Under the pieces are notes generated by a model that saw only the letters and a program-made list of their open reading frames with translations, had not been told where the DNA came from and did not search any database. Both the position numbers and the translations under genes were made by a program. This document shows positions 11,651 to 64,000 of a DNA stretch of 64,000 nt, one piece after another. This stretch comes from Clostridiales bacterium (GTDB taxonomy: Bacteria; Bacillota; Clostridia; Lachnospirales; WQUN01): NCBI GenBank assembly GCA_031263155.1, contig JAISGK010000102.1, forward strand, positions 7,028 to 71,027, given 5' to 3'. The first letter of the stretch is position 1. Each line of letters opens with the position of its first letter.

Positions 11651-11652
11651 TC

Positions 11653-15189: not shown

Positions 15190-15192
15190 TGT

Positions 15193-33027: not shown

Positions 33028-33371
33028 CATATCGGATGTGATATCGAAGTGAAGCATGTCACAAACAAAGGTAAACTTTCAACAATCAACCATATTCAAT
33101 AATATCCTAGCTGCTCTGATTTGTTGGTTTTTTGATTTCTTATGATTTTTGTAGGGGAGCGCGAATTACACGAATAAAATATGGTTATTCTGTGTTGTGT
33201 ATAATTCTTCTCTGTAACTCAAATAATACAATTAACTCAAATAATACCATTGCAAAAAAAGAACAATACAGTTAATATATTCTTGTAGACATGCAAACAC
33301 CACATAAGAATAAATATTATTATTTAGCAGAAAATAAATAAGAGGGACTTAATAAAGGGAGGTATTTAATC

Positions 33372-33917
33372 TTGAAGGCAACTGGGATAGTCAGAAGAAT
33401 TGACGATTTGGGCCGGGTAGTAATCCCAAAAGAGATCAGGCGAACCCTTCGCATAAGAGAGGGCGATCCGTTAGAGATATTTACTGACAGGGAAGGCGAA
33501 ATAATTCTAAAAAAGTATTCGCCTATCGGTGAATTGGGAACATTTGCTAAAGAATACGCGGAAAGCCTCGCTCAATCTGTGGGACATATTACTTGTATTG
33601 TCGATAAGGATCAGATAATTGCCGTTTCTGGCGGGGCAAAAAAAGATTTTTTGGAAAAGCATATTTCTTCAGCATTGGAAAAATCGATAAATCAACGCAA
33701 TACCATCTTATCCAACCGCAGCGAAAGCAGTTTCGTTCCTATACTTGATGAGGACGATCCGAGCACATATAACAATGAATTGATAACCCCTATCATCGCA
33801 GAAGGTGACGTTCTTGGCGCTATTGTACTTTTGTCAAACAACAAAAAGATGGGTGATGTAGAAGAAAAGCTTGCGCAAACGGCAGCCGGATTTTTGGGTA
33901 AACAAATGGAACAATAG
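33372..33917 (+). CDS. spoVT: Stage V sporulation protein T (AbrB-type N-domain plus GAF-like domain)
   Basis: MKATGIVRRIDDLGRVVIPKEIRRTLRIREGDPLEIF...AAGFLGKQMEQ is near-collinear with my recollection of B. subtilis SpoVT. TTG start preceded by AGGGAGG. Confidence 0.88.
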   Translation: MKATGIVRRIDDLGRVVIPKEIRRTLRIREGDPLEIFTDREGEIILKKYSPIGELGTFAKEYAESLAQSVGHITCIVDKDQIIAVSGGAKKDFLEKHISSALEKSINQRNTILSNRSESSFVPILDEDDPSTYNNELITPIIAEGDVLGAIVLLSNNKKMGDVEEKLAQTAAGFLGKQMEQ

Positions 33918-33924
33918 AGGTGTA

Positions 33925-33957
33925 AGAATGAATCGGAGATGGTTCATTCTTTTTTTC
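33925..33957 (+). terminator. Rho-independent terminator after spoVT
   Basis: agaatgaa-tcggagatgg-ttcattct forms an 8-bp stem followed by TTTTTTT. Confidence 0.6.
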
Positions 33958-34035
33958 TTGTATATATGGGTATATATTTGGTTTATATTGGCATTTGTCG
34001 GATATTGCGCCCTGCCAAAAAGTCCACCTTAGTCA

Positions 34036-34064
34036 TTGCCTAAATTGATTATAAATGCTATATT
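34036..34064 (+). promoter_or_regulatory. Candidate sigma-A promoter of dnaA
   Basis: TTGCCT, a 17-nt spacer, then TATATT, about 80 nt upstream of the dnaA ATG. Confidence 0.35.
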
Positions 34065-34145
34065 TTTATTGAAGCTCCAGCAATCGTCAACAATTAATCA
34101 AGAGGATAACTATAAACACTAAAGTGAGAGCTAAGGAGAGCCAAA

Positions 34146-35465
34146 ATGAAAGAGCTAATTGCCGAATATTGGACGCAAGCGCTTGAGCTGCTGGAAAATT
34201 CATACACAGAGGTCGTTTTTAACGCCTGGCTTAAGCCACTAAAACCATATGATTACGACAGCAACGTATTTTTGCTAAAAACAGACGACGATTTCTTTAA
34301 GGCGAGGCTTAACCAACGATATTTGCACGAAATAACTCGCTGCTTGCGAGCGGTCATGAATGCTGATGTTGATGTGCGCGTAATTTCACCGGAAGATTTC
34401 ATTCCTGGCACTGGAGAATTAATTAAGAAAAACGCGTTTCAAACAAATTTGCGTTCAAAATACACCTTCGAAACATTTGTACAAGGCAAGAGCAATCAGG
34501 TGGCTTACGGAGCGGCGCTCACGGTCAGTGAGTCCCCCGGCGAGAAGGGTTATAACCCTCTTTTTTTATATGGCGGGGTTGGGCTGGGTAAAACACACCT
34601 TATGCATTCTATAGGTAATTACATCATTGAACAGACATCGGGCGCCAAGGTTTACTACGTCTCTTCCGAAACCTTCATGAACGAATTTGTCGCGGCCATT
34701 CGCTCTAGCGCCATGTCCTCTTTCCGCGAAAAGTATCGTGATTTGGATGTGTTGCTACTAGACGATGTACAATTTCTTGAAGGAAAGGAAGAGACGCAGG
34801 AAGAACTTTTTCACACGTTTAACACCTTGTATGGGTTTAATAAGCAAATAGTTTTAACCAGCGATCAGCCCCCAAAGGTGATGAAAGGGCTTGAGGAACG
34901 ATTGATATCCCGCTTTGCCATGGGACTCAACGTAGACATTAACAAACCCGATCTCGAAACACGAATGGCAATCTTAGAGAAAAAAACGAAATTTGAAAAA
35001 TTGAGTATTCCGCACGATGTACTACAATACATAGCTCAATATGTGGTATCAAACATACGCGACCTTGAGGGCGCGTTAAACAAGGTGGCAGCCTACTCAC
35101 GGCTTACACACACATTGATAAGCATGGATATGGCCGAAGACGCCTTAAAAGACATGGTAACAGGGGTAGAAAAGCCGGAAATAACAGTAGCGTACATACA
35201 GGGGGTTGTGGCGAGCTATTATGATATAACTGTGGATGACATGTTGAGTACAAAACGCAAACAGAGCGTCGCGTTTCCGCGCCAGGTCGCTATGTATCTA
35301 TCACGAAAGATATTGGATATGTCACTGCCGTTGGTAGGCAAGGCGTTTGGGGGCCGCAACCATTCTACGGTTATACATAGCGTAGAGCGCATACTGGAAT
35401 CGCTTGACAAGGACATAAACCTCCAACGCGTGATATATGACCTTGAGCGTAAGATTAGATCATAG
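34146..35465 (+). CDS. dnaA: Chromosomal replication initiator DnaA
   Basis: AAA+ Walker A GGVGLGKTHL, LLLDDVQF, and domain IV ...PRQVAMYLSRK...FGGRNHSTVIH. RBS AAGGAGAG. Confidence 0.97.
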   Translation: MKELIAEYWTQALELLENSYTEVVFNAWLKPLKPYDYDSNVFLLKTDDDFFKARLNQRYLHEITRCLRAVMNADVDVRVISPEDFIPGTGELIKKNAFQTNLRSKYTFETFVQGKSNQVAYGAALTVSESPGEKGYNPLFLYGGVGLGKTHLMHSIGNYIIEQTSGAKVYYVSSETFMNEFVAAIRSSAMSSFREKYRDLDVLLLDDVQFLEGKEETQEELFHTFNTLYGFNKQIVLTSDQPPKVMKGLEERLISRFAMGLNVDINKPDLETRMAILEKKTKFEKLSIPHDVLQYIAQYVVSNIRDLEGALNKVAAYSRLTHTLISMDMAEDALKDMVTGVEKPEITVAYIQGVVASYYDITVDDMLSTKRKQSVAFPRQVAMYLSRKILDMSLPLVGKAFGGRNHSTVIHSVERILESLDKDINLQRVIYDLERKIRS

Positions 35466-35928
35466 CGCCCAGAGTCATTAATATGATACCAGGGCGCCAT
35501 ATTAATCAAATCTCAACGATTGCGATAAAATCGGCATTGGTCAATCTGTGAAACGGCATACCCGCAAATGACGAAGAACATTTTGTTCATGCGAAAAACA
35601 GTGAATCCTGCGGATACTGAAAATTATCTAGTAATAATTACTGTTTGTCGTTTATAGCCGATATCTTCAATTTCTATAACAATATAGCACGAGGCGCAGT
35701 TCTTGTCGAATGGCCGCTCGCGATCGGCATTGTAAGCTCGGTTTTCATTGCTGTTGTAGCCTTCGCTGAATATTCTCAATAATCGATATTTATATAAACT
35801 ATTCGACAATACCGTGAACATTGTTAAGCAAATTACTATTAGAAATTCTCATTAAAATTTGATTAGAAATCAGTTGCTATTGTATTACAATTATTTCGCA
35901 ATTTTTACGAAACCGCGTTTAGAATGAG

Positions 35929-36600
35929 TTATCAACAGATTTTTGGCAAAAACTGTTGATAACCCTGTTGATAAAAAAGTTATCAACAGGTAGCCTGTTG
36001 ATAAAAGTTGCAGGAAACAAAATAGTTATTACTACTAGTTTTGAGTTATGAACAGGTTTTTTTAAAAAACTGTTGATAACTTTCAAAAACCTGTTCATAA
36101 CTTTCGTTTTTTGGCCAAAATCTGTTGATAAAAATATTTAAAAATTTTTTTCAAAAAATCAAGAAATTGATGAGGCTTTTTCGACTCAAAATCTCCCGCT
36201 TCGATGTATTTTTTAAAGTTATGAACATTTTTGAGCCAAAAACTGTTGATAACTCAAAAAATCTGTTGATAACTTTTTAGACCCGTACAAAACATCGAAA
36301 TGTTATTAACATTTACCTGTTCATAACTTCAAAACTAATTATTAGAAAATTTTAATCAAAAATAGGTATACTACCAATTCCACACATAAATATATGGCAT
36401 GACTATGGGCCGATACATTAATTTACATATTTTTGACAAATACTACTCATTATTTCGACACTCAAAGATCCTAGGGTGTGATAAAGTTATTAACAGCCCC
36501 TGTTGATAACTTGGCAAGTTATCAACAGGTTAGGGGCAAGTTATCAACAGGCACTTTGCCGTAATTACGCCATTTTCGTGAGTTATGAACAGTATGAACA
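35929..36600. other. oriC DnaA-box cluster in the dnaA-dnaN intergenic region
   Basis: 12 exact TTATCAACA/TGTTGATAA 9-mers at 35929, 35954, 35966, 35980, 35996, 36071, 36123, 36244, 36264, 36501, 36519 and 36541. 5 TTATGAACA/TGTTCATAA at 36046, 36092, 36219, 36318 and 36583. Degenerate copies at 36301, 36487 and 36592. AT-rich tracts lie at ~36130-36175 and 36330-36440. Confidence 0.9.
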
Positions 36601-36619
36601 GCCCCTACTACTACTACTA
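36583..36619 (+). promoter_or_regulatory. Probable origin unwinding module: abutting box pair, GC cluster, then five CTA DnaA-trios
   Basis: TTATGAACA (36583-36591), GTATGAACA (36592-36600), gccc (36601-36604), then CTA x5 (36605-36619). Confidence 0.65.
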
Positions 36620-36813
36620 TAGATCATACATACATTCATACACTCATACACAGCAGCGTGGAAAATAATCTTTCCACCAGTCAGTTAGATCCGTACTGGA
36701 TGTCGAAAGGTCAACTGCTTTTGCCCACTTCATCCACTCGACCACCATAAACAATTGTTCATCCACAGTTTGAACAGATAACCCTCATCAAAAAAAATAC
36801 GGGAGGCTAACAC

Positions 36814-37929
36814 ATGAAAATCTTAATCAACAAAAATCTGCTGCTGGAGAATCTCGCTGTTGTCGGCAAGGCGGTAAGTACACGAGCGCCCATGCCCATT
36901 TTGGAGTGCGTACTCATCAAGGCTCAAGGCTCCTCTGTAAAAGTCTACGGCAATGATTTAGAATTGGGCATCGTATCTGCGGACATGGAAGCGACGGTAG
37001 ATGTACCCGGCTCTGTCGCTATTGAGGCCAAGATGCTGCTGGAGATTGTGCGCAAAATGCCCGATGCGTACATACGCATAGAAACCGACAAGTCGAATGT
37101 GACGCGCCTCAATAGCGGTCGCACAGAGTTTAAAGTGCTGGGTTTAGACGGCGAAGAATTCCCTTTGCCCAATACGAATAGCTCAGATGAGGTATTCGAA
37201 GTAAACGCGTCAGACTTTAAGGACATGATACGGCAAACCATTTTTTCTGTGGCGCAGGATGAGTCCAAGCCGGTTTTAACCGGAGAACTAATAGAGATAA
37301 AAGACGGAGAGCTGCACCTGGTGGCCGTGGATGGATTTCGCATCGCTTATCGTAAAAGCCGCTTGCCAGAATATGATGCGGGAGCATCCTTTAAAGCGGT
37401 GGTACCCGCAAAGACCCTTAACGAGCTTGCCCGCGCGCTCCCTTCCGAAGGCGAAGAAAAACTTAGATTTTATCTATCGGGCAATCAGATTGTATTTGAT
37501 CTGACCAGATATCGTTTTATATCGCGCTTGATAGAGGGCGAGTTTATACGCTATAATCAAATATTTAACGAAGACCATACCACAATGGTTAATATCAGCA
37601 ACCCTATTTTTCTTGACAGCATAGAGCGCGTTTCGCTTATCGCGCGCGACGTTAAAAAATCTCCCGTTAAGTTGAGTATTGGAAACGATATAATTGAGTT
37701 GTCATCTACGGCGGAGATGGGGGTGTCATACGATGAAGCAGCCGCAGATGTAGACGGCAACCCATTGGAGATTGCGTTTAATCCCCGGTTTCTTGCGGAA
37801 GCGCTGCGCGCGATTGGCGATGAAAAAGTGATTTTGCTCTTTACAGCGCCGCTTTCACCGTGTATCATAAAAGGTGCTGATAATCCGGTTTATAAATATC
37901 TCATTTTGCCGCTGCGTATGAAAGGTTAG
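36814..37929 (+). CDS. dnaN: DNA polymerase III beta sliding clamp
   Basis: 371 aa, MKILINKNLLLENL... with the three-domain clamp pattern. Position after dnaA/oriC. RBS GGGAGG. Confidence 0.96.
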   Translation: MKILINKNLLLENLAVVGKAVSTRAPMPILECVLIKAQGSSVKVYGNDLELGIVSADMEATVDVPGSVAIEAKMLLEIVRKMPDAYIRIETDKSNVTRLNSGRTEFKVLGLDGEEFPLPNTNSSDEVFEVNASDFKDMIRQTIFSVAQDESKPVLTGELIEIKDGELHLVAVDGFRIAYRKSRLPEYDAGASFKAVVPAKTLNELARALPSEGEEKLRFYLSGNQIVFDLTRYRFISRLIEGEFIRYNQIFNEDHTTMVNISNPIFLDSIERVSLIARDVKKSPVKLSIGNDIIELSSTAEMGVSYDEAAADVDGNPLEIAFNPRFLAEALRAIGDEKVILLFTAPLSPCIIKGADNPVYKYLILPLRMKG

Positions 37930-37978
37930 CGCGTTACTGTTGATTATGCGGCCCAAAACAAGGCAAAAATAATAAAGG

Positions 37979-39055
37979 GTGCGGAAATTGAGGATACATA
38001 CGGTTTGCGTGACCGGCTTTCGCAATTTGCAGGATGGCGAGCATGAATTGTTCCCTGGTGTTAATATCCTTTTTGGCGACAACGCGCAAGGCAAAACGAA
38101 TTTTTTGGAGGCCGTGTATGTGTGCTCGACCGGACGCTCTCAACGAGGCTCCGCCGATCGGGAAATGATAAATCACGACTTATCAGAATCGCGCGTTCGC
38201 GTAGAAACGGATGATTCGACGCTCATAGACATACATCTGCAACGCGGCGGAAAAAAAAGCGTGGCCATAAATCACCTGCCGACAAAGCGCCTAGGTGATT
38301 TATTTGGCAATCTATTAACCGTCAGTTTTTCTCCGGAAGACTTGAGAATTATAAAACAAGGCCCCAAAGAACGCAGAAGATTTATGGACATGGAGCTTTG
38401 CCAGCTTTCACGTATTTATTACAGCGAATTGCTGTCTTATTACCGCGCGCTTAGACAACGCAATAATCTATTGCGACAAATAAAACAAGAGCGGGCAGAG
38501 CGCGCCACGCTATTTATCTGGAATTCGCAACTCGCGACGCACGGGGCGAAAATATTCGCGCGGCGTAAAGAATTTTGTGAGCTGCTTAATAATATAGCCG
38601 GTAGATTGCACGCCGCGATCACCAACCATAATGAATCGCTTCAAGTAATCTATAAGCCCGACGCCGCGCCCAACGACGTTGAAGAGAGGCTTAACGCCAA
38701 TACCGAACGGGATATAACGCGGGTGAGCACATCTGTTGGTATTCATCGCGACGATATTGAGTTTATCGTAAACGATACAAATTGCCGCGTATACGGTTCG
38801 CAAGGGCAGCAACGGACTGCCGCGCTTTCCGCCAAGCTGGCGGAAATGGAGATAATAAAACAAACAAAGAATAAAAATCCCATACTACTGCTGGATGATG
38901 TGCTATCAGAACTGGACATAAACAGGCAAAGGTATCTCCTTGACAGCATAAGCGGCAGTCAGGTTATCATGACTCTTACTGGTATGGAAGATATAAAGCG
39001 GTTCGCGCCGGCAGACGCGAGAATAATGGCGGTTAAGCAGGGGAGTATCACATAA
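37979..39055 (+). CDS. recF: DNA replication and repair protein RecF
   Basis: NFRN-like GFRNL, Walker A GDNAQGKTN, signature-like SQGQQRT, Walker B ILLLDDV. Confidence 0.93.
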   Translation: MRKLRIHTVCVTGFRNLQDGEHELFPGVNILFGDNAQGKTNFLEAVYVCSTGRSQRGSADREMINHDLSESRVRVETDDSTLIDIHLQRGGKKSVAINHLPTKRLGDLFGNLLTVSFSPEDLRIIKQGPKERRRFMDMELCQLSRIYYSELLSYYRALRQRNNLLRQIKQERAERATLFIWNSQLATHGAKIFARRKEFCELLNNIAGRLHAAITNHNESLQVIYKPDAAPNDVEERLNANTERDITRVSTSVGIHRDDIEFIVNDTNCRVYGSQGQQRTAALSAKLAEMEIIKQTKNKNPILLLDDVLSELDINRQRYLLDSISGSQVIMTLTGMEDIKRFAPADARIMAVKQGSIT

Positions 39056-54765: not shown

Positions 54766-57525
54766 ATGCGCCCTAAAAGAATTATACTCTTCGCGTTTGC
54801 AATCATATTCGCGATGACAATCGCCCTCATACGCGTAAACGACACCCACGCCGCCGAATCAACAGACCCAGGGTCATCTTCCGGGCCATTTAATGTAGGC
54901 GACACTCGTCTGTTTCAATTTTATAAGATTACATCTGCTACAAAATATCTTGCAATAATGGCGAATTTGGCTGCCCAGCATGGCGGCATAAACATTTGGG
55001 TGCTTGATGACGCGGACTATCATAATAAAACGAACACAGCTCATTCAAATGCGTGCAGGCTTCGCGATATTAATACAGAATTCGCCAATCACTTAGCAAA
55101 AAGGTTTGACGAAGTTTTTGCCGAGCTTGACTCCATTGCGCAATATTCGGGAGTGGTGACAAACGCCAACCTGTCCTCAATTGGCGTAACTGATGTGGGA
55201 GACCTGGGTAATGACGGTGCGCTTAACTGCCTACTGTATGACATCAAGGGCGACAGCGGCAAAGAGAGTGATGACTATCAAGCGGCTGTGTTTGACCGCA
55301 AAGACTACGCGCCAGGAACTTCTGGAGGTACGATAGAATACAGCAAGCTGGATATGATACATATAGACATTGGCAATCGCGGGTATACAGCTCTTACCGA
55401 TGGCAATGAGGAAATGATTGAAGCGTTTGCGCGTGAGCTTTTTAACATGTGTTTCTTTGTGCGTTTTGAGGCTCATAAAAACCAGCCAACCGATGAAATA
55501 ACCCAATTGTTGAGCGAGGCGTTAGCGCACTTGTTTGTGGCGCGCTTGAGTGCGGAGCGGGCAGAAACAACATTGCCAGACACCCCATATTGGAACGAAA
55601 ACATATTGATTTCTGATGCGGCTACCAACACTTATAATAACCCCAATCCATACAGTGAATTTTTCAGATATAACTGTGATAAAAATTATGCCTTGGCGGT
55701 GCTGTTCGCTAAATGGTCAACCAGATACCCGGATTTTATGCCGAGCATTATTACATATGTGCAGCAAAAATATATCCCCGATCCAAAGCCGTTGGATGAG
55801 GTAAAGGTTACGGATCTTTACGCCGCGATGGGCGATATGCTAAAGGCCGCAACCGATATTGGCACGGGTGGCGAGGACACCCTTAAACAGATCTATTTCG
55901 CTTTTATGGAAACATTCGCGGCGGATGGCGGCACGGTGTACGGAATAGATGAGACTTATGAAACACAGCCGTTGGGAGCTTTGGCAGAGGGCGGGCTGTG
56001 GGCGTACAGAATTAATGACGATACGATTAAAAGCATAGTCAGCGAAGATAAAATCAACGATAAAATTAACGAGGATGAAGCGCTCGTAGATAAAATCAGC
56101 TTGAAGGGCTATCCTGATAATTTGACCCTTGGCCCCTCGCACGAGAAGTTTTATAAGCTCGTGCCAGATGAGGAAGGCTTACCTCTTTTGACAATAAATG
56201 CGCCTATATCTGGTGACGAACGCTATTATATAGCAATACCAAGGGAAAATGGAGGCGCGGATTTATACGCGCTTGCCCAAGGAACCGCCAACAATATTAA
56301 CACGCGAGGAAAGGATGCGTATTTATATGTTGTGACGTACAAGCAAGTTGTTGACACGGCCATCACATATTCGTGGGATGAGGTCAAGGAAGAGTTGATT
56401 GATGAACAAGAGGACGATCCAGAGCTGGGCGGAACTGATCCAACGGAGCCGGATGATGAGCAAGGCGGAATTGATCCAGCGGAGCCAGATGATGAGCAAG
56501 GCGGAGCAGATCCAGCGGAGCCAGATGATGAGCAAGGCAGAGTAGATCCAGCAGGGCCGGACGACGAGCAGATCGGAGCAGATCCAACGGAACCGGACGA
56601 CGAGCAGATCAGAGCAGATCCAACGGAACCGGACGACGAGCAGATCGGAGCAGATCCAACGGAACCGGACGACGAGCAGATCGGAGCAGATCCAGCGGAG
56701 CCGGATGATGAGCAAGGCGCATCGGTAACACCCGAAAAAATCACCACAATAGACCCCTCACCCGGCCCGGCTAACGAACCTGCTTCAAGCGTGACAGCAA
56801 GCCGCTCTTCGACCACACCAGCGCCATCAAAAAATCTATTGTCGTCGGTTTACGATACCGCAAGTAGTGCTGAATTGGCGCAGACTTTGCTATCAAGCCC
56901 GGTTATACCGTCGCTGTCATCAGATAACGCGCTAACCATAGCAGGCGACATAGCAAAAATGTTGCACAACCTCGGCTTGTTCGTCGGGGATACGACCAGT
57001 GAAACTACCCCTGTTTACCGTCTAGAGCAACCGCTTTCGCGCATAGAGTCTCTTTCCCTGCTCATTCGTTTGTTGGGGCTGGAACAATTGGCAATCGCCT
57101 ATGATGGGAGTTGCCCCTTTAACGATGTGCCGGTTTGGGGACAAAGCGTCGCGGCATTCGCGAATGTTCACGGCATTGCGTTTGGTGTCGATGACGATCA
57201 ATTCGACGCGTCGAGGTCTATTACGTACAAAGAATTTACCGCTATGCTACTGCGAGCGTTGGGTTACACCGAACAGCAGGGTGACTTTGATTTTAATAGC
57301 GCTGTTGATTACGCCGTTAAGATAAATCTGCAAAGCCTGTCAAGGCGCGATATATTTGATACAACCTATCTGCGCGCGTATGCCGTTATAGAAATGTCAG
57401 ACGCGCTATTGGCCAATGAAAAAGGGAGCGGGCCGCGTTTGATTGATCGTCTTGTCAATTCTGGCGCTATCACATTAGAGCAAGCGGAAAATTTTATATC
57501 ACAAATTGCCGCTATTCGCGCTTGA
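54766..57525 (+). CDS. Secreted SLH-domain cell-wall protein with an acidic tandem-repeat linker
   Basis: Signal peptide (MRPKRIILFAFAIIFAMTIALIRVNDTHA/AE), a ~550-aa N-domain of unknown family, 8 x 12-aa DP(T/A)EPDDEQxGx repeats and a P/S/T-rich linker. The C-terminus has SLH-like repeats (FNDVPVWGQSVAAFANVHGIAFGVDDDQFDASRSITYKEFTAMLLRALG). Confidence 0.75.
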   Translation: MRPKRIILFAFAIIFAMTIALIRVNDTHAAESTDPGSSSGPFNVGDTRLFQFYKITSATKYLAIMANLAAQHGGINIWVLDDADYHNKTNTAHSNACRLRDINTEFANHLAKRFDEVFAELDSIAQYSGVVTNANLSSIGVTDVGDLGNDGALNCLLYDIKGDSGKESDDYQAAVFDRKDYAPGTSGGTIEYSKLDMIHIDIGNRGYTALTDGNEEMIEAFARELFNMCFFVRFEAHKNQPTDEITQLLSEALAHLFVARLSAERAETTLPDTPYWNENILISDAATNTYNNPNPYSEFFRYNCDKNYALAVLFAKWSTRYPDFMPSIITYVQQKYIPDPKPLDEVKVTDLYAAMGDMLKAATDIGTGGEDTLKQIYFAFMETFAADGGTVYGIDETYETQPLGALAEGGLWAYRINDDTIKSIVSEDKINDKINEDEALVDKISLKGYPDNLTLGPSHEKFYKLVPDEEGLPLLTINAPISGDERYYIAIPRENGGADLYALAQGTANNINTRGKDAYLYVVTYKQVVDTAITYSWDEVKEELIDEQEDDPELGGTDPTEPDDEQGGIDPAEPDDEQGGADPAEPDDEQGRVDPAGPDDEQIGADPTEPDDEQIRADPTEPDDEQIGADPTEPDDEQIGADPAEPDDEQGASVTPEKITTIDPSPGPANEPASSVTASRSSTTPAPSKNLLSSVYDTASSAELAQTLLSSPVIPSLSSDNALTIAGDIAKMLHNLGLFVGDTTSETTPVYRLEQPLSRIESLSLLIRLLGLEQLAIAYDGSCPFNDVPVWGQSVAAFANVHGIAFGVDDDQFDASRSITYKEFTAMLLRALGYTEQQGDFDFNSAVDYAVKINLQSLSRRDIFDTTYLRAYAVIEMSDALLANEKGSGPRLIDRLVNSGAITLEQAENFISQIAAIRA
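56437..56724 (+). repeat. 8 x 36-bp in-frame tandem repeat inside the SLH-protein gene
   Basis: Units start at 56437 + 36n. Units 6 and 7 are identical (gatccaacggaaccggacgacgagcagatcggagca) and unit 5 differs from them by 1 nt. Confidence 0.92.
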
Positions 57526-57684: not shown

Positions 57685-57716
57685 CCTATCCCACAAAATC
57701 CTTATTGTGGGATAGG
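57685..57716. terminator. Bidirectional hairpin terminator between convergent genes
   Basis: cctatcccacaa-aatcctta-ttgtgggatagg forms a perfect 12-bp stem. It lies between the + gene ending at 57525 and the - gene ending at 57736. Confidence 0.6.
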
Positions 57717-57735: not shown

Positions 57736-58230
57736 TCATCCGAACAGTTTAACGAAATCAGCATAGCGATTTTCAGATTTCAGCAGCTTCGCCAATATAT
57801 CCCTCACCGCCCCTCGACCGCCATTGAGTTTACTTATATAATCGCATATCGCCTTTATTTCTTCCACAGCGTCCGCCGGACAGGCTTTCCATCCACAGAG
57901 ATCCATTGCGGCGTAATCGTTTAAGTCATTGCCAATGTAGGCGACTGCGGCAAATCTAATGCCAAGTTCTCCGCACAATTCACGCAAGGCGACGACTTTG
58001 TCGCCAATGCCGTGGTACAACTTTGTAATCCTCAAGTCTCGAGCGCGAACCTCAACAGGCGAGGAAATACGGCCTGTTATTATCGCCGTAACGTAGCCCA
58101 ACGCTGGCAATTGGCGTATTATCAGGCCATCCGCGTCACTAAAACATTTTGTTTCAATGCCGCCATCGGATATAATTATTCCGCCGTCTGTCAGCGTTCC
58201 GTCAACATCAAATACAATCAGCTTTATCAT
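57736..58230 (-). CDS. KdsC/YrbI-family HAD-IIIA phosphatase (ulosonate-phosphate phosphatase-like)
   Basis: 164 aa: LIVFDVDGTLTDG...ITGR...YIGNDLNDY...NGGRGAVRD. The start overlaps the upstream stop by 4 nt. Confidence 0.85.
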   Translation of the reverse strand: MIKLIVFDVDGTLTDGGIIISDGGIETKCFSDADGLIIRQLPALGYVTAIITGRISSPVEVRARDLRITKLYHGIGDKVVALRELCGELGIRFAAVAYIGNDLNDYAAMDLCGWKACPADAVEEIKAICDYISKLNGGRGAVRDILAKLLKSENRYADFVKLFG

Positions 58231-59768
58231 ATCCTATAGGCTGTTGGTGTTACAAAATTTAGCTTCATACGCTTATGTATCTTCCTTAATTGAGTTTCCA
58301 TATTTTCGTTCAGGTTTTCAATAGCCTCGCCCGAAAGATAGTTGTCATAGGTTTTGCCATAATAGTTAGTCCCCGCCGAAAATCCGTCATAGCCCGCAAG
58401 CGCGGCGGACTTTATATCAAGCTGTATCAATAAGCGCAATGCCATTAGTCCCGACGAGTCTGAGCTGCCTGAACGAAGCGAGTCATAATCAATCACAAAC
58501 GCGTTTTGCGCGTCAATGTTGGACGAAACAATCACAGGGATTTCATTTCTTCTTAGCTGGCCGTAGCGCCTTTGGTTGCCAATAAATACCAAATCCGGCG
58601 TAAATTGCTCCGGCACGAAGTTGACGCTGATTACAAACGAGTTAGTTGCGGCAATATATTTGCCAATTGAATCCGCATGTGTTTTTACGGAACTGCCGGG
58701 AACCGCAACTAATACAGCGCGTACGCCTATGATTTCACGTAGATTCTTCAAAGCCACCGCGTCATTGGTAGTGTGCCGCATATCGGCGAAATAGACTTCC
58801 TCAATAAGCGATTTTTTGAACAAATGCCTGTTATTCTGTGGCAAAACATCAAGCAGTCTACTGATCTTTGCCATACTCATAGATTGTTTGTCAATCAGGT
58901 AAGACGCGTAATTTGGGTGGACCCCACGAATTGCCGCCATATAGTACGGCTCGCTGAATCCCCATGGCGTGTACTTGTAAATGGGCAGAATAATCTCATC
59001 CATTAAGTCAAGCAATGGCGTTATATTGTAGCGGTTCTCAATATTACTGTTTATATAGTGCGTGATTAGCTCCGTATTCAGGTTTCCCGCGCCGCGTCCC
59101 ATTCCGAAAATGGAACTGTCAATGATTAAATATCTTTGCGTGTGAAGCTCCAGTAAACTCATTGCGTTGGAAAACGACAGCTGCATATTGTTGTGCGAGT
59201 GAAAACCTAACGCGATGCCGTCCGCTAAATTATGCTCTACGAGGAAAAACAGCCGCATTAAATCATTCTTGTACATTGAGCCGAGCGTATCAACGAGATA
59301 GAATGCGAACGGCTTTAGTTCGTTTACTTGCTTTATAAGCGCAAGAAGCTCTTCATCTGTATATGACAGCGTTCCGACAGGTTGGATAAAGACCTTATAG
59401 CCCTTATCCATAAGATTTTGGGCTAACGCTTTTGTTTCTTCCCATTCGGAATTGTGAAATGTCAGCCGAATCCCGTCAATATAATCAGACTGTCTTTTTG
59501 CGATTTCGCTGGCGCTAATATCACCGAACGCAATCATCGCCACAAACATTTGCGCGTCGCGATTAGGAGGCAGCTTTATTTGTTCTGCCGCGCCATACAA
59601 CGAGCGCTCCGGGTCATTCTTGCCAGACTGTAAAAAGCCACACTCAATAATATCAATGTTCGCATCGCAAAACCCACTCTTGATTTTTTCAATAGTGCTT
59701 GCGCCGAAATTGAAATCGTTTACATATCCGCCGTCGCGGAGAGTGCAGTCTAAAACGTTGATTCTCAA
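58227..59768 (-). CDS. DmpG/HMGL-like aldolase-domain protein with an extra ~200-aa C-terminal domain
   Basis: N-terminal TIM-barrel motifs DCTLRDGGY, GFHSHNN (HxH) and GMGRGAGN. The C-terminal third (…VLVAVPGSSVKTHADSIGKYIAATNSFVISVNF…) is of a family I do not recognise. Confidence 0.75.
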   Translation of the reverse strand: MRINVLDCTLRDGGYVNDFNFGASTIEKIKSGFCDANIDIIECGFLQSGKNDPERSLYGAAEQIKLPPNRDAQMFVAMIAFGDISASEIAKRQSDYIDGIRLTFHNSEWEETKALAQNLMDKGYKVFIQPVGTLSYTDEELLALIKQVNELKPFAFYLVDTLGSMYKNDLMRLFFLVEHNLADGIALGFHSHNNMQLSFSNAMSLLELHTQRYLIIDSSIFGMGRGAGNLNTELITHYINSNIENRYNITPLLDLMDEIILPIYKYTPWGFSEPYYMAAIRGVHPNYASYLIDKQSMSMAKISRLLDVLPQNNRHLFKKSLIEEVYFADMRHTTNDAVALKNLREIIGVRAVLVAVPGSSVKTHADSIGKYIAATNSFVISVNFVPEQFTPDLVFIGNQRRYGQLRRNEIPVIVSSNIDAQNAFVIDYDSLRSGSSDSSGLMALRLLIQLDIKSAALAGYDGFSAGTNYYGKTYDNYLSGEAIENLNENMETQLRKIHKRMKLNFVTPTAYRI

Positions 59769-59828
59769 ATCACAATCTCCCCTTTGCTGATTTTGCCTTG
59801 AGTAATTTGCCGTACATATTCTAAATGA

Positions 59829-60470
59829 TTACAACTCGGGTGGGGGGAGCGCTTGCGCTAGTTCAAAGTCGACTTGCTCATTTATGTCAATCGCTTCGAG
59901 TTTTGATACTTCAACCAGCATTGGTTTGTTTCCGATTCTGCTTCCGTTTTCCGTTATCAGCTCTCGCTTGAAAATATAGAAGCCTGTAGTTTCAATAAAG
60001 AACGGGTCCAAATCTTGCGTTCGCGGAATATCTCGCGTGTCGTAATTGGGCTTGCCGTCTTGCCACAAAAACTCGTTGTGTTTTGTCACAGAGAAGGAGC
60101 AATCGTATTCGCCGCTCACAATGGCATTTATACCTTTCTCAACGCTTTCCGCTGACGTATAGGGGGCGGTTGCATGCATTAACGCGTACACGTCAGCGGG
60201 AACAGCTTGAACAAACTCGGATATGACCGCAGTAATGCTGGTGTTTGACAAGTCTAAATACTCGGCGCGCTTCAACAATTTCACACCCTGCGGTAAGTAA
60301 TCGCAGATTCCTTCGTTACTGCACCAAACGTACACCGAATCAAATGAGCGTACTTTTAACGCTGTCTCCAAAATGTAGCTTATCAGCGGCTTGTTGTGGA
60401 GCAGCTTTATGTTTTTGCCCGGCAATCGCTCGTTATTCAGCTTTATTGGGATAAAAGCAATTGTTTTCAT
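59829..60470 (-). CDS. CTP_transf_3 (NeuA/KdsB-type) cytidylyltransferase
   Basis: MKTIAFIPIKLNNERLPGKNIKLL... is the typical N-terminal P-loop-like motif of acylneuraminate/Kdo cytidylyltransferases. 213 aa. Confidence 0.85.
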   Translation of the reverse strand: MKTIAFIPIKLNNERLPGKNIKLLHNKPLISYILETALKVRSFDSVYVWCSNEGICDYLPQGVKLLKRAEYLDLSNTSITAVISEFVQAVPADVYALMHATAPYTSAESVEKGINAIVSGEYDCSFSVTKHNEFLWQDGKPNYDTRDIPRTQDLDPFFIETTGFYIFKRELITENGSRIGNKPMLVEVSKLEAIDINEQVDFELAQALPPPEL

Positions 60471-60472
60471 TT

Positions 60473-63400
60473 CTATCCTCGCTCGCCTCCAAATACAAAA
60501 TCTTCGGATGTTTTTCGATTCTCCGCCATTTTTATCAGCGCGACAGCATCTGTATACGGCAGTCCATAACGTTTTTTACGCAGCTGCAAATCGTCAAACA
60601 GGTAATATTTAAGCAGTTGCGCGCAATGGCGTTCAAAAGCCGCAATTTGCTGAGTTGCGCGCTTATTCTCCAACACCGTTTTTATTGTCGGCTCTATCAG
60701 TTCGATTTTAAGCGCCTCATACGCACAACCCTGACCAATCAGAGTACTCTTGCCCAACAAGACAACGGGGTAACCTCTCACAAGCGCGTTGTACGACACG
60801 CTCGTCGCAATGCAAATGATTACATCGCTTACAGCAAACATATCGTACAGGCTACCCTGCGGTAAATAGATGACATTCTTAGGCGGTAAGTGTAATTTAG
60901 GTAAGTATGAGTGTGATGCCGCAACTGTTATCGGGTGAGGCTTGTATATCAAATTCCAATTGTTTTTCTCCGCCAGTCTCGCAAGGAACCGCATAGCCTC
61001 ATCTGATGAGTCGAACATAGGCGATATGCCTCCTTTGCCCTCGTGCCAAAACTTCGGCATTCCAGCTTCCGCATCCAATTCGCCAGCGTAAAGTAAAGTT
61101 GGTCTAGAGCGGTCAATTGAGGTAAGTTTATCCGCAACTTCTGGCAATGACTGTTGTTTGTACCTGTTGGAATTGTTTGATTGCCACCCTGAAATCAACT
61201 CGCGCGCGCGCTCTATTTCTTCGTCGCAGACAGGCAAAGCGGCAAAACGGTCGGGGAATTTTCCAATTGTACCGAATCCAAGCATACCGAATGTGTCCAT
61301 CAGCATTGTCCCGGGCAACATCCCACTTTCTGAAATTACAATGGGAATGTTCTTTTCCTGCGCTACAATGCTCGCCGTGTGGTTAAATGGTACAAATTGG
61401 TTCCAACTCCAAAGTACTTTGGATGCGCGAAGTGCCTCGCGCAGATATTTGTACTGGTAGTAAACCAGCACGCTTGCGCTGTTGCCGACATAGTGCCCCG
61501 CGTACCCAACATTCAGTACATCCACGCACTCTTGCAAATCGGGGTGCTGCTTGAAGAATGCCCTTATTTCACTCGGTATTGCTTTTTCAGCGGACGAAAC
61601 GGTGTAGGAGCGAGCAAACTCATCTGGGACATATATTCTGGCAAGTACAGCACTTTTATTAAATCCGCTCATTTGAGGAACTATCGCGCAAGCATCAATG
61701 TTAGGAGCAACAGCGTTTAGCAGTTTAAAAAAGTTTGCGTGCGGCATGCCGACAAATGGCAGTTCGACAGGTGGAGATGAGGTTAATTTCGCGATTGCCG
61801 CCTCTGTTTTGAGGCGTACAGAATCCGCAAACTTTACGTTTTTACCCGACAGTATGCGATAGACTCTTCTTACGGGATGCAGAATATGTAATTTGACGCA
61901 TAGTTTCCAGACATTGACGCGCAGTCTCTCGAAAAACGGCAATGTGGTTGCTGAACTCTTAAACCTGGAACTATACCAAATTGCAAACCGCGTTTCCGAA
62001 TGGTTGTCAAACCGATTGGGATAATACAAATTCCTGATAAATTCCGCGTCGAACCTGTTCGGTGACAGTAGCAAATCATATATGATTTGATAGGCTGACA
62101 ATTGTGAATACGTTATCTTATCAATGTATTTTCCGAACAGTATTGCGAATTGCTCAACGTACTCAATAACTGCGCCTTGAATAGTTTCGATTGAATGTGT
62201 GAATTTAGTTTCTTCCTGTATAAGAATCTCCGGCTCACCGTTTTTGATGCCGACGACCTCCGCGCGCGGGTCTGACATTATAACTTCTGGCAAAATAATA
62301 GCGGGCGATGCTCGTGAAAACATATAATATTCATACTGAACAAACGTATTTTGGCGCACTTTTTTATTGAAGTAAGTGGATGGATTGCCTAAAAGCTGAT
62401 AACTAACAGGGTTGACACCGATATAGTTTGCCACAAAGACAGCCGATGCCGACCGCGAACCGCTGTCGAAAATACCGCAGTTATCGGTACAGATGTTGCT
62501 TAGGTATTGGCGAAATTGATTCGCATAGTCCAATGCGAACGGCTGCCATACCTCTTGCACTTTTGCGCACAACTGCGGGTTTTGTTTAATTCCCACAATT
62601 ATTTTGTCGCCGCGTGAACAGCCGTAAGAATAAAAAATCTTGCGAATCTTTGTTGCTGCCTCATCATCAGTAATGTTAAGGTAATCGCTGATGAATGAAT
62701 CAACGGTAAGTGTCGATATAACATCGTCGTGAATTATGGCTTCAAACAAGCCATTCCGCTTCGAAGCAAAAAATGGGGTGCGCAAGATTCTCGAAAGATA
62801 GGCCGTCTCAATGGAAAACGTATTACTGGAAAAGTACGGCGTTAGAATATCCAGTATCTTTTTGTGCATATACCCGTCGCGGTAAGCGAGAATGAGTTTG
62901 TCGATCTTGTCAATTTTTGCCTGTTCTGCCAGCCACAGCGCCGACGTAATAAACCACGGCGCGATAAGATAACCGAACTGCCTGGCTTCCCCATTGTAGC
63001 GGCTGTATTTGGGAGTCGGTTTGTACGGGTCGTCAAACATAAAATTAAACGCCAGACCCATCATCATCTGAAATTGAGTTGCTCTAATATTGGCGTGCGA
63101 ATATTTTGTAATTGCTTTCAAGCGCGGATGTTTATTTACACAATCCATTACTTTCATTATAAACTCGGCTTGAAGTCCTTTGCTGCGCGGAATAGTTACA
63201 TCGGATTTCCAATTGTCTCCGATATGAATAATTTCGTTTGTCTTTATTCCGCGTTTGGCAAACTCGCAGATTACTGCGGTCCAAAGATTGCCTGTGCCTT
63301 TGAACAGCCTATATTCACTTGAAATGTATAGTTTTGAGTAGCCGGTGTAACCATTTTTTTCTAACATACGCGCAAGAAATTCAGCGGATAGGTACATATC

Positions 63401-63850
63401 GGAAACAATGATGACTTCTTTATCTGCGTCTAATGCCGCTTGATACAATAACTTAGTGATTTGTCGGGGGTAAGTAAGTTCTAATTCCAAATCTAACTCT
63501 ATGCGCTTTAAACGTTCTGTTTCAACCGGATCAATATTAAACAGATTTGCGTAAACCTCGTATATCAAGCCAAGAGTGACATCTTCATCCTGTGCGTTTT
63601 TATAATACTTCCGCGCTTGAACCTCCGCTGTTATGCGTTTTTGTGGGAAAAACTCAACGTCTGCTATTTGTCCGGCAAGCACAAACATGTCCTGCGGGTC
63701 AAGAACTGGACGTAAAATAAGCGTGTCAAAAATATCAAAACTTACAATTTTTATTTCCGGCGCAAGGATTTTGTCATAAATCCCGCACATTCGCTCCGAC
63801 AATGTGTCATATGTTTTGGTTATTGCCTCGCGCAATTTACTTTCTCCCAT
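60473..63850 (-). CDS. 1125-aa fusion: HAD-superfamily domain(s) plus a C-terminal KpsC/KpsS-like (Capsule_synth) transferase domain
   Basis: N-terminal DxDxT (VSFDIFDTLILRP) and IHIGDNWKSD. The C-terminal ISESGMLPG..., IYKPHP and VIICIATSVSYNALVRGYPVVLLG resemble KpsS FEEGYLRP / KHHP / VVTINSTAGISAL. I place the start at ATG 63850 (MGESKL...). Confidence 0.65.
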   Translation of the reverse strand: MGESKLREAITKTYDTLSERMCGIYDKILAPEIKIVSFDIFDTLILRPVLDPQDMFVLAGQIADVEFFPQKRITAEVQARKYYKNAQDEDVTLGLIYEVYANLFNIDPVETERLKRIELDLELELTYPRQITKLLYQAALDADKEVIIVSDMYLSAEFLARMLEKNGYTGYSKLYISSEYRLFKGTGNLWTAVICEFAKRGIKTNEIIHIGDNWKSDVTIPRSKGLQAEFIMKVMDCVNKHPRLKAITKYSHANIRATQFQMMMGLAFNFMFDDPYKPTPKYSRYNGEARQFGYLIAPWFITSALWLAEQAKIDKIDKLILAYRDGYMHKKILDILTPYFSSNTFSIETAYLSRILRTPFFASKRNGLFEAIIHDDVISTLTVDSFISDYLNITDDEAATKIRKIFYSYGCSRGDKIIVGIKQNPQLCAKVQEVWQPFALDYANQFRQYLSNICTDNCGIFDSGSRSASAVFVANYIGVNPVSYQLLGNPSTYFNKKVRQNTFVQYEYYMFSRASPAIILPEVIMSDPRAEVVGIKNGEPEILIQEETKFTHSIETIQGAVIEYVEQFAILFGKYIDKITYSQLSAYQIIYDLLLSPNRFDAEFIRNLYYPNRFDNHSETRFAIWYSSRFKSSATTLPFFERLRVNVWKLCVKLHILHPVRRVYRILSGKNVKFADSVRLKTEAAIAKLTSSPPVELPFVGMPHANFFKLLNAVAPNIDACAIVPQMSGFNKSAVLARIYVPDEFARSYTVSSAEKAIPSEIRAFFKQHPDLQECVDVLNVGYAGHYVGNSASVLVYYQYKYLREALRASKVLWSWNQFVPFNHTASIVAQEKNIPIVISESGMLPGTMLMDTFGMLGFGTIGKFPDRFAALPVCDEEIERARELISGWQSNNSNRYKQQSLPEVADKLTSIDRSRPTLLYAGELDAEAGMPKFWHEGKGGISPMFDSSDEAMRFLARLAEKNNWNLIYKPHPITVAASHSYLPKLHLPPKNVIYLPQGSLYDMFAVSDVIICIATSVSYNALVRGYPVVLLGKSTLIGQGCAYEALKIELIEPTIKTVLENKRATQQIAAFERHCAQLLKYYLFDDLQLRKKRYGLPYTDAVALIKMAENRKTSEDFVFGGERG

Positions 63851-64000
63851 CTTTATGTTTTGGGCTGTTGTACTCCTCGCAGACCTCCGCCACATTGCCG
63901 CTGAACGCAAGCTGCCGACCGTGGTCTAGCCACAAGACTTTGTTACAAAGCCGTGTAACCTGCTCAATACTGTGGGACACGATTATCGTCGTAGCGCCAG
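63837..64000 (-). CDS. Polysaccharide/teichoic-acid-type ABC exporter ATP-binding protein, 3' end only
   Basis: The reverse strand reads GATTIIVSHSIEQVTRLCNKVLWLDHGRQLAFSGNVAEVCEEYNSPKHKDGRK* (H-loop region of TagH/KpsT/Wzt-like ATPases). It overlaps the next start by 14 nt and is cut by the window edge. Confidence 0.7.
   Translation of the reverse strand, partial: GATTIIVSHSIEQVTRLCNKVLWLDHGRQLAFSGNVAEVCEEYNSPKHKDGRK

Follow-up and report, generated by a model that had tools for sequence, protein, structure and literature searches.

To determine whether bacteria may make a CMP-activated, Kdo-like acidic sugar without the usual KdsA/NeuB synthase, we examined the last three genes of a cell-wall polysaccharide operon found in a 64,000-nucleotide stretch (hereafter, the window) of contig JAISGK010000102.1 from an uncultured gut-type Clostridia bacterium. 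An earlier note based on the sequence alone had proposed that a DmpG/HMGL-like aldolase replaces the synthase in these genes, and had suggested a pyruvate-dependent route to a ulosonic-type acid phosphate that is then dephosphorylated and CMP-activated. The gene arrangement was confirmed [Table 1] and the interpretation is supported by the analyses described below, although the sugar's identity, the use of pyruvate and the phosphorylated intermediate are inferred. The same uncharacterised cassette recurs in hundreds of bacterial genomes, and no description of this aldolase family was found in ten literature searches.

A conserved three-gene cassette at the 3' end of a longer operon

The three co-oriented genes form the 3' end of a longer operon, a feature not seen in the earlier note, whose probable end is a perfect stem-loop located 19 nt after the phosphatase stop codon. 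The predicted RNA fold is strong (dG -30.8 kcal/mol, z -5.4, with 0 of 200 shuffles folding as well), but it has no U-tract and was not called by a terminator scan. The arrangement is not a chance juxtaposition, in that the order cytidylyltransferase, aldolase, phosphatase recurs in unrelated taxa and in 4 of 5 close-relative contigs.

Table 1 Features of the cassette and of the adjacent upstream gene (window coordinates)
Feature	Coordinates	Strand	Size or residues	Assignment
Cytidylyltransferase gene	59829-60470	-	213 aa	CTP_transf_3 cytidylyltransferase, predicted CMP-ulosonate synthetase
Gap between first two genes	59769-59828		60 nt	
Aldolase gene (TTG start)	58227-59768	-	513 aa	HMGL/DmpG-like aldolase
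Aldolase, N-terminal part	58779-59768	-	aa 1-330	DmpG-like class II aldolase TIM barrel plus helical 'communication' domain (predicted fold)
Aldolase, C-terminal part	58230-58766	-	aa ~335-513	Conserved alpha/beta domain, predicted MptE/SteA/Cst-II-like nucleotide-binding fold; function unknown
Overlap between last two genes	58227-58230		4 nt	
Phosphatase gene	57736-58230	-	164 aa	YrbI/KdsC-family HAD-IIIA phosphatase, predicted ulosonate-omega-phosphate phosphatase
Stem-loop	57685-57716	-	12-bp stem	Probable end of the operon
1145-aa protein, N-terminal module	61961-63781	-	aa ~44-650	Predicted HAD phosphoribosyl-phosphatase plus PRPP-dependent glycan ribofuranosyltransferase module
1145-aa protein, C-terminal module	60476-61813	-	aa ~700-1145	Tentative KpsC/Capsule_synth-like GT-B module, predicted CMP-ulosonate transferase

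The 513-aa protein is aldolase-like

To establish whether the 513-aa protein is an aldolase rather than an unrelated carboxyltransferase, its sequence and predicted structure were compared to known families. Residues 3-251 matched PF00682 (HMGL-like) with 55.2 bits against a cutoff of 29, and the best NCBIfam models were 4-hydroxy-2-oxovalerate aldolase models (TIGR03217 / NF006049), albeit with scores far below their curated cutoffs (66.1 bits against 286, and 76.2 bits against 229). The best sequence matches in the PDB included 3dxi (E 8e-21), a structural-genomics member of the same family, and the DmpG-type aldolase 4lrs (E 1.5e-11). An AlphaFold2 model of the protein (pLDDT 89) retrieved 3dxi (E 3.6e-14), 4lrs, 1nvm, 8ih7 and 4jn6 as top Foldseek hits, with TMt values of 0.63-0.72. 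The motifs DCTLRDGGY (D7-Y15), HSH (H190, H192) and GMGRGAGN (G222-N229) are invariant in 39 homologues. R11, D12, H190 and H192, the equivalents of DmpG R17, D18, H200 and H202, are invariant in 39 and in 78 homologues, and Y287, the equivalent of the communication-domain residue Y291, is conserved in 90% or more. In contrast, the catalytic base His21 of DmpG (motif RDGxH) is replaced by Tyr15 (RDGGY); the aligned residue is Tyr in 68 of the 71 classified homologues (55 of 58 and 13 of 13) and in 3dxi. Together with the low equivalog-level scores, this means that the chemistry may differ from that of DmpG. No acylating aldehyde dehydrogenase (DmpF-type) partner gene appears in the operon or among the recurrent neighbour families.

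The earlier note overlooked the conserved C-terminal domain of the protein. A model of this domain (pLDDT 89.7) matched SteA (9hmz, E 1.7e-4) and Cst-II with CMP (2x61, E 4.6e-3) by Foldseek, both with TMq 0.55, and a profile search against the PDB returned 9hmz at 0.006 and MptE 8sd5 at 0.32. Alignment of profiles to MptE-like proteins encoded in the loci (hhalign) gave an E-value of 1.7e-3 but only 15% probability, and aligned APGxS with GTGPS and LAGYDG with LLGxDC. PF01973 was not significant on this domain, matching only 2 of 17 members at E 0.055, and no His is conserved at a Cst-II His188-like position, such that an MptE/Cst-II-like fold remains a tentative assignment. The motifs P357-G358, N383, N398, R401, S416-N417, D437 and G459-x-D461-G462 are equally conserved in loci without a cytidylyltransferase.

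The partner enzymes point to a keto-deoxy acid

We next asked whether the cytidylyltransferase is of the ulosonate type or of the IspD/TagD polyol-phosphate type. The 213-aa protein matched PF02348 (CTP_transf_3) with 53.7 bits against a cutoff of 22.6, which places it in the ulosonate type, and R15 and K19 of the CTP-binding loop are invariant in 51 aldolase-adjacent homologues. The protein is nonetheless divergent and belongs to a 'PseF-like' subtype, scoring 66.7 bits on the PseF model against a cutoff of 205.7 and 31.5 or less on the KdsB models. Of the 51 orthologous-position partners, 28 scored as KdsB-like (E down to 3.5e-93) and 19 as weakly PseF-like; some reach KdsB subfamily scores, as in locus L032 (218.9 against 193). 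The 164-aa protein passed the cutoff of the YrbI/KdsC family model TIGR01670 (131.6 bits against 106.95) but not those of the substrate-specific KdsC (129 against 208) and KDN-9-P phosphatase (113.1 against 180) models. Its best PDB matches were KdsC 4um5 (E 1.4e-32) and E. coli KdsC 2r8e (E 2.8e-26), over the full length.

Among 77 related loci from diverse taxa, 57 carry a CTP_transf_3 gene, within two genes of the aldolase in 52, while a HAD_2 phosphatase is found within two genes in 22 loci and a KdsC-type phosphatase in 12. The order found in the window is typical, and one homologue is an aldolase-HAD_2 fusion. However, 26 loci that have the cytidylyltransferase lack an adjacent phosphatase. 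In 6 loci, a kinase sits where the phosphatase normally is, a situation not explained by a simple three-step scheme; in 6 loci the adjacent kinase is KDG/KDGal-kinase-like. In an alternative context the partner is a ThDP enzyme, a family that acts on 2-oxo acids. Most carriers sampled are Clostridia and other Bacillota, with some Bacteroidales and others.

To search for a canonical synthase, PDB-validated KdsA, NeuB and KdsD probes were run by tblastn and phmmer against the window and 81 fetched loci (82 sequences, 1.5 Mb in all), yielding no hit. Nor do these families recur among 135 other neighbour clusters. No kdsA or neuB was found just outside the window either, the upstream operon being visible in one of the loci (L001), although a synthase encoded elsewhere in the genome is not excluded by these searches.

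The neighbouring transferases belong to families whose characterised members use CMP-Kdo or CMP-sialic-type donors: KpsC-like, GT99, polysialyltransferase-like, GT52 and Maf-like. GT99 proteins lie beside the cassette in three loci (L083, L085 and L086), at 89.5, 76.3 and 30.2 bits against a cutoff of 27, and PF07388, GT52, MptE/PseD-like or TIGR04396 proteins are present in 46 of the 57 loci that have a cytidylyltransferase.

The upstream gene predicts a ribofuranose-ulosonate polymer

The gene upstream of the cassette, which itself lies downstream of an ABC transporter, encodes a 1145-aa protein with an uncertain start codon (1120 aa was called in L001). Its N-terminal region matched 7shg (T. 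composti ribofuranosyltransferase) at E 2.7e-9 by phmmer, and a family profile matched H. influenzae b Bcs3 (8a0c/9h50) at E 1e-41 and 7shg at E 6.9e-36 over profile positions 86-619, spanning both the HAD and transferase modules. The HAD motif FDIFDT (F58-D59-x-F61-D62-T63) is invariant. The roles of these modules are taken from PMC12887879 and PMC10299916. The KpsC-like assignment of the C-terminal module rests on a partial, weak match to PF05159 (23.9 bits against a cutoff of 20, over aa 968-1065 and model positions 168-274) and on a weak match to KpsC 6mgd (E 0.049); a profile search against the PDB found nothing. K-P-H-P is invariant when aligned with neighbouring PF07388-type proteins. 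The Eggerthellaceae homologue is 30% identical over the full length.

Proposed pathway and alternatives

We propose, with a probability of roughly 65%, that the trio is a self-contained cassette making a CMP-activated 3-deoxy-2-ulosonic acid, either Kdo itself or a close analogue, without a PEP-dependent KdsA/NeuB synthase. In the inferred scheme, the DmpG-like aldolase domain forms a pyruvate enolate on its Asp/His/His metal site and adds it to an aldose phosphate from central metabolism, giving a 4-hydroxy-2-oxo (ulosonate) omega-phosphate; the phosphatase removes the phosphate, which makes the sequence irreversible; and the CTP_transf_3 enzyme converts the free ulosonate to its CMP glycoside. 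There is no biochemical evidence for any family member, and no arabinose-5-phosphate isomerase is encoded nearby. The KpsC-like module would then transfer the sugar, and the N-terminal module of the same protein would add ribofuranose from PRPP and remove the 5-phosphate. The product would be an alternating ribofuranose-ulosonate anionic polymer, primed by the upstream GT2 enzymes and exported by the ABC transporter, by a teichoic-acid-like (ABC-dependent) route in a monoderm Clostridia bacterium. The C-terminal domain of the aldolase, which has no place in the minimal three-step scheme, probably binds a nucleotide and contributes to the synthase step, although its role is unknown.

An unlikely alternative retains the overall pathway but makes the aldolase protein bifunctional, its C-terminal domain being an ATP-dependent kinase that phosphorylates either the free aldose substrate or the aldol product. 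Pyruvate plus ATP would then stand in for PEP, and the HAD phosphatase would remove the phosphate afterwards, as in the animal kinase, synthase, phosphatase route to sialic acid. In favor of this view, the domain resembles MptE, a pyrophosphokinase, and SteA; the conservation of its polar motifs whether or not a cytidylyltransferase is present argues for a catalytic role tied to the aldolase step rather than sensing of the CMP product; and the pTM of the full-length model (0.82) suggests that the two domains are fixed relative to each other. Against it, the CMP-binding sialyltransferase Cst-II matched at a similar score, the family-level matches to MptE were weak as described above, and some loci add a separate PfkB kinase, which would then be redundant. 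The 513-aa protein might found a new class of ulosonate synthase in which pyruvate plus a nucleotide triphosphate replaces PEP, making genuine Kdo, or a new Kdo isomer built directly from a pentose phosphate, in monoderm bacteria. Kdo-type wall polymers, here a ribofuranose-Kdo teichoic-acid-like polymer, would then be common in gut Clostridia, Eggerthellaceae and Bacteroidales, made by a pathway that current annotation does not recognise. We consider this reading improbable, though not excluded.

It is also unlikely that the aldolase is not the synthase of the CMP-activated sugar, with the cytidylyltransferase acting on Kdo or a nonulosonic acid made by a canonical KdsA/NeuB enzyme encoded elsewhere in the genome, and the aldolase and phosphatase making a different component such as a substituent or a precursor aldehyde. 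Aldolase homologues do occur without any cytidylyltransferase, in the ThDP-enzyme context (13 loci), and a Firmicute with canonical kdsA/B/C/D plus kpsC exists. Yet the cytidylyltransferase is immediately upstream of the aldolase in 51 loci across several phyla, no canonical synthase was detected in the 1.5 Mb of such loci searched, whereas canonical CMP-ulosonate clusters would normally be expected to keep the synthase next to the synthetase, the phosphatase family is known only for ulosonate phosphates, judging from its family models, and a monoderm Clostridia host is not expected to make LPS Kdo. Finally, a Claisen-type synthase of the isopropylmalate/citramalate/homocitrate kind, or a lyase, making a non-sugar hydroxy-acid that is then activated or attached, is very doubtful, for despite weak matches to IPMS, homocitrate and citramalate synthase models and structures, the absence of the catalytic His of DmpG and an extra C-terminal domain of the sort that tends to be regulatory in IPMS-type enzymes, DmpG-type models and structures scored clearly better (76 against 32 bits or less, and 4lrs at E 1.5e-11 against citramalate synthase at 3.9e-4), the communication-domain Tyr is conserved, and CTP_transf_3 enzymes and the Kdo/sialyl-type transferases need a 2-keto acid able to form a hemiketal, which a Claisen product is not.

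Comparison to characterised systems

The proposed route follows the logic of the canonical CMP-Kdo pathway (KdsD, KdsA, KdsC, KdsB) and of the KDN/Neu5Ac-9-phosphate pathways (NeuB-type synthase, YrbI-family phosphatase, NeuA), in which a three-carbon keto-acid unit is condensed with an aldose phosphate prior to dephosphorylation and formation of the CMP glycoside. It differs from them in that the synthase is not homologous to KdsA or NeuB, is expected to use pyruvate rather than PEP, and carries an extra domain, and in that no KdsD was found in the loci searched. Relative to the DmpG/BphI/HsaF 4-hydroxy-2-oxovalerate aldolases, which share the fold, the metal site, the enolate-stabilising Arg and the communication-domain Tyr, the family described here sits in a biosynthetic glycan context rather than a catabolic aromatic or steroid one. 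3DXI, the N-terminal domain of putative aldolase BVU_2661 from Bacteroides vulgatus, shares the DCTLRDGGY motif but has no assigned function; only this domain was solved, and no paper mentioning it was found.

The E. coli K13/K20/K23 capsule polymerase KrkA (PMC12887879), which in K13 makes a ribose-Kdo polymer, provides a functional precedent for one polypeptide combining a PRPP-dependent ribofuranosyltransferase and HAD phosphatase with a CMP-ulosonate (Kdo) transferase, with export dependent on an ABC transporter. In the window, the domain order is reversed, the Kdo-transferase-like module appears KpsC/PF05159-like rather than GT140, the host is Gram-positive-type, and the sugar donor is inferred to come from the aldolase cassette rather than from housekeeping KdsA. 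Such polymers are plausible in monoderms, as shown by a genomic island of Bacillus coahuilensis m2-6 (PMC4744853) that pairs kdsA, kdsB, kdsC and kdsD with kpsC; that island, however, uses the canonical KdsA and KdsD, apparently acquired from Gram-negative bacteria.

The three genes of the cassette and their families

ORF calling placed the three genes where the earlier note had put them, all on the minus strand, with a 60-nt gap between the first two and a 4-nt overlap between the last two (see the table of features). Family scans assigned the 213-aa product to PF02348 CTP_transf_3 at 53.7 bits, the best NCBIfam model being PseF at 66.7 bits, far below its cutoff. The 513-aa product matched PF00682 HMGL-like over aa 3-251 at 55.2 bits, and its best NCBIfam models were the 4-hydroxy-2-oxovalerate aldolases at 76 and 66 bits, again far below their cutoffs, whereas the 164-aa product scored 131.6 bits on the YrbI/KdsC model TIGR01670, above the cutoff of 106.95. 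The aldolase motifs DCTLRDGGY, HSH and GMGRGAGN picked out in the earlier note are present and invariant in 39 homologues. A perfect 12-bp hairpin (dG -30.8 kcal/mol, z -5.4) follows the last stop codon, and the trio thus probably closes an operon.

Table of features. Coordinates in the window and in loci carrying aldolase homologues.
Sequence	Coordinates	Strand	Feature
Window	59829-60470	-	CTP_transf_3 cytidylyltransferase, 213 aa
Window	58227-59768	-	HMGL/DmpG-like aldolase protein, 513 aa, TTG start
Window	57736-58230	-	YrbI/KdsC-family phosphatase, 164 aa
Window	57685-57716		Perfect 12-bp hairpin after the last stop codon
Window	60473-63910		ORF immediately upstream of the trio, fusion protein, 1145 aa
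Window	54766-57525		ORF of a 919-aa secreted or surface protein
Window	56428-56719	+	36-bp tandem repeat (8.1 copies, 87% matches) inside ORF 54766-57525
Window	32000-38000		Segment with GC content of 0.40-0.42
Window	7498-28816	-	Run of about 18 co-oriented genes, including 489-, 489- and 647-aa ORFs
L001 (identical contig)	3139-4416		~425-460-aa protein with no Pfam match (cluster c18), upstream of the window's end
L043, L045, L049, L050, L052, L067, L071, L075, L077-L079, L081 (loci of the ThDP-enzyme context)	~10001-11590 in most		Aldolase homologue
L020 (kinase-type locus)	11584-12609		PfkB kinase directly downstream of the aldolase
L033 (kinase-type locus)	11563-12585		PfkB kinase directly downstream of the aldolase
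L083 (close relative)	12430-15546		GT99 (PF21912) protein
L085 (close relative)	7918-9210		GT99 (PF21912) protein
L086 (close relative)	12134-13702		GT99 (PF21912) protein
L082 (Eggerthellaceae MAG)	13596-14642		BNR_2 (sialidase-like) protein and Mur-ligase-family protein directly following the cassette

Predicted two-part architecture of the aldolase protein

To gain insight into the 513-aa protein, an AlphaFold model was built on 39 homologues and proved to be confident (pLDDT 89, pTM 0.82). The N-terminal part (aa 1 to ~330) is a DmpG-like aldolase. Its best PDB sequence hit was 3dxi, the N-terminal domain of a putative aldolase, BVU_2661, from Bacteroides vulgatus (E 8e-21), followed by the DmpG-type aldolases 4lrs, 8ih7, 1nvm and 4jn6, and Foldseek gave the same order. 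Alignment to 4lrs placed R11, D12, H190, H192 and Y287 on R17, D18, H200, H202 and Y291 of DmpG, the first four being invariant and Y287 nearly so. In contrast, the catalytic His21 of DmpG is replaced by a family-wide Tyr15. Claisen-type relatives (IPMS, homocitrate and citramalate synthases) and carboxyltransferases scored much worse.

The C-terminal part (aa ~335-513), which the earlier note had overlooked, has no Pfam match but carries the invariant polar motifs P357-G358, N383, R401, S416-N417, D437 and G459-x-D461-G462. When this part was modelled alone (pLDDT 89.7), its best structural matches were SteA (E 1.7e-4) and the sialyltransferase Cst-II in complex with CMP (E 4.6e-3), both with TMq 0.55. 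A sequence profile weakly found SteA and the archaeal pyrophosphokinase MptE, and hhalign against MptE-like proteins from related loci aligned APGxS with GTGPS and LAGYDG with LLGxDC, at E 1.7e-3 and low probability. The domain thus appears to adopt an MptE/GT42-like nucleotide-binding fold, although membership of PF01973 is not established. Its motifs are equally conserved in 13 loci in which the aldolase accompanies a ThDP enzyme and no cytidylyltransferase is present, which argues for a role intrinsic to the synthase step, possibly that of a kinase, and against a sensor of the CMP-sugar product, a possibility considered by analogy with IPMS regulatory domains and rated unlikely. A SIS-type sugar-phosphate isomerase supplying arabinose-5-P was not adopted, as it rested only on weak Foldseek hints (9lj9, and YckF at TMq 0.28) much poorer than the MptE/Cst-II matches.

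A predicted ribofuranosyltransferase fusion precedes the cassette

The 1145-aa ORF immediately upstream of the trio appears to be a fusion. Residues ~44-650 are homologous to the HAD phosphoribosyl-phosphatase plus PRPP-dependent glycan ribofuranosyltransferase, phmmer finding 7shg at E 2.7e-9 and a profile built with related proteins finding Bcs3 at 1e-41 and 7shg at 6.9e-36. The function of these modules is established for Bcs3, for the Klebsiella O4/O7 enzymes and for KrkA. Residues ~968-1065 match part of PF05159 Capsule_synth, the KpsC/KpsS family, at 23.9 bits against a cutoff of 20, match KpsC 6mgd weakly, and contain an invariant K-P-H-P; a PDB profile search with this KpsC-like module aligned to PF07388-type neighbours, however, found nothing.

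The rest of the operon upstream is visible in L001, an identical contig, and consists of two GT2 genes, a 425-aa protein with no Pfam hit, an ABC-2 permease and an ABC ATPase, with no kdsA or neuB among them. A ~425-460-aa protein without a Pfam match, with homologues in 8 loci, recurs between the GT2/GT4 genes and the ABC transporter in loci of this type, and may be a primer, adaptor or terminator component of the polymer pathway.

Conservation of the cassette across related loci

The aldolase family is large, with 7464 protein clusters scoring E<=1e-3, of which the top 120 are all full-length at 43-75% identity and are named only 'aldolase catalytic domain-containing protein' or 4-hydroxy-2-oxovalerate aldolase. 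These come from Clostridia, Bacilli, Bacteroidales, Melainabacteria, Fusobacterium, Treponema, Helicobacteraceae and an alphaproteobacterium. To determine whether the association of the three genes was conserved, ORFs were called in 80 such loci, clustered, and the clusters annotated. Of the 77 loci with an aldolase ORF, 57 contain a CTP_transf_3 gene, which lies within two genes of the aldolase in 52 and immediately upstream in 51. A HAD_2 phosphatase is found within two genes in 22 loci and a KdsC-type phosphatase within two genes in 12, and one homologue is an aldolase-HAD_2 fusion. Of the 51 adjacent cytidylyltransferases, 28 are KdsB-like (E down to 3.5e-93) and 19, including that of the window, are weakly PseF-like. 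Of the 57 cytidylyltransferase-containing loci, 46 also encode proteins of sialyl/ulosonate-transferase-like families, namely PF07388, MptE/PseD-like or TIGR04396 'surface carbohydrate biosynthesis protein', and GT52 also appears among other neighbours. Twelve loci pair the cassette with the same ribofuranosyltransferase family as in the window.

We next searched for canonical synthases. PDB-validated KdsA, NeuB and KdsD probes gave no hit in the window or in 81 loci, 1.5 Mb in all. A neighbour cluster lying next to a NeuC-like epimerase was rejected as a hidden NeuB, being a GFO/IDH/MocA oxidoreductase that is part of a WbpB-type set.

Two departures from the common arrangement were noted. 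In six loci (L020, L028, L033, L035, L045 and L055), a PfkB kinase, scoring 497-552 bits on the kinase half of the 'KHG/KDPG aldolase/sugar kinase' model and 217-237 bits on KDG/KDGal kinase, sits directly downstream of the aldolase where the phosphatase usually is, a substitution that remains unexplained. In 13 of the 77 loci, an AHAS-like ThDP enzyme is adjacent to the aldolase and none of these 13 has a cytidylyltransferase; this second context never overlaps that with the cytidylyltransferase. These loci often also have an NDP-sugar transferase, an SDR and a DegT aminotransferase, and K122 of the aldolase is replaced by Leu in this group while the C-terminal-domain motifs stay invariant. 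This context may represent a decarboxylative fate for the same 2-oxo-acid product.

Close relatives of the cassette

Five contigs carrying aldolases 57-62% identical to that of the window were examined. Four keep the order cytidylyltransferase, aldolase, KdsC-type phosphatase, whereas the fifth lacks the phosphatase. The Eggerthellaceae MAG (L082) has the same fusion, here of 1141 aa and 30% identical over its full length, and in this MAG a BNR_2 (sialidase-like) protein and a Mur-ligase-family protein follow the cassette directly. Three others (L083, L085 and L086) have, next to the cassette, a protein with the GT99 N-terminal domain PF21912, at 89.5, 76.3 and 30.2 bits against a cutoff of 27. 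GT99 is the WbbB beta-Kdo transferase family (PMC9587256). One of these proteins is fused to WsaF rhamnosyltransferase domains, and all three sit beside rml, RgpF or ABC-transporter genes, in rhamnan-type loci with ABC-transporter or Wzy-type (L085) genes nearby, suggesting that the sugar caps or decorates rhamnose polymers there. GT99 homologues were absent from the 80 loci of the genome survey and occurred only in these closer relatives of the window.

A proposed KdsA/NeuB-independent route to a CMP-ulosonic acid

The simplest reading that fits all of these observations is a KdsA/NeuB-independent route, in which pyruvate is added to an aldose phosphate by aldol addition, the product is dephosphorylated and CMP-activated, and the sugar is transferred by Kdo/sialyl-type transferases. 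In the window, the transfer step would alternate with the addition of PRPP-derived ribofuranose, the polymer being then exported by the ABC transporter. This is the hypothesis of the earlier note, which had proposed a pyruvate-dependent route to a CMP-activated ulosonic-type acid for a wall or capsule polymer, with the polymerase context added. It is supported by comparative genomics but, in the absence of biochemical evidence for any family member and with the absence of kdsA established only within the loci searched and not in the rest of this genome, remains a hypothesis. The literature searches returned no description of this aldolase family. The closest characterized analogue of the polymerase is KrkA of E. 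coli K13, which makes [ribofuranose-Kdo]n, and a Firmicute island of B. coahuilensis with canonical kdsA/B/C/D plus kpsC shows the canonical version of the same idea. The KdsB-like, KdsC-like, GT99 and KpsC-like partners make Kdo or a close analogue the best guess for the product; however, no arabinose-5-phosphate isomerase is nearby and the KDG-kinase-like neighbor leaves shorter keto-deoxy acids open, such that assignment of the product as Kdo itself is no more than tentative.

CMP-activated ulosonic acids (Kdo, sialic, pseudaminic and legionaminic acids) are major determinants of bacterial surface recognition. All known routes to them use PEP-dependent KdsA/NeuB synthases, and genome mining for these sugars relies on those genes. 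What would be new here is a CMP-ulosonate pathway relying on a non-homologous, aldolase-based synthase. Such a route, seen here in hundreds of genome stretches and thousands of protein clusters, would mean that these acidic sugars are systematically overlooked in Gram-positive-type and gut anaerobes. It would further add a new enzyme for the chemo-enzymatic synthesis of keto-deoxy sugars from pyruvate, give a function to a structural-genomics orphan (3DXI), and predicts an alternating ribofuranose-ulosonate wall polymer in Clostridia, analogous to the E. coli K13 capsule.

Other features of the window

Rfam and tRNA scans of the window were empty. The tandem repeat located in the ORF of a 919-aa secreted or surface protein encodes an acidic 12-residue repeat (about GADPTEPDDEQ). 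The C-terminal region of this protein looks like a wall-binding module, but has only a weak PepX_N hit, and the two 919-aa ORFs found in the window are unrelated. Finally, the segment of reduced GC content, which compares with about 0.49 elsewhere in the window, may have been horizontally acquired.
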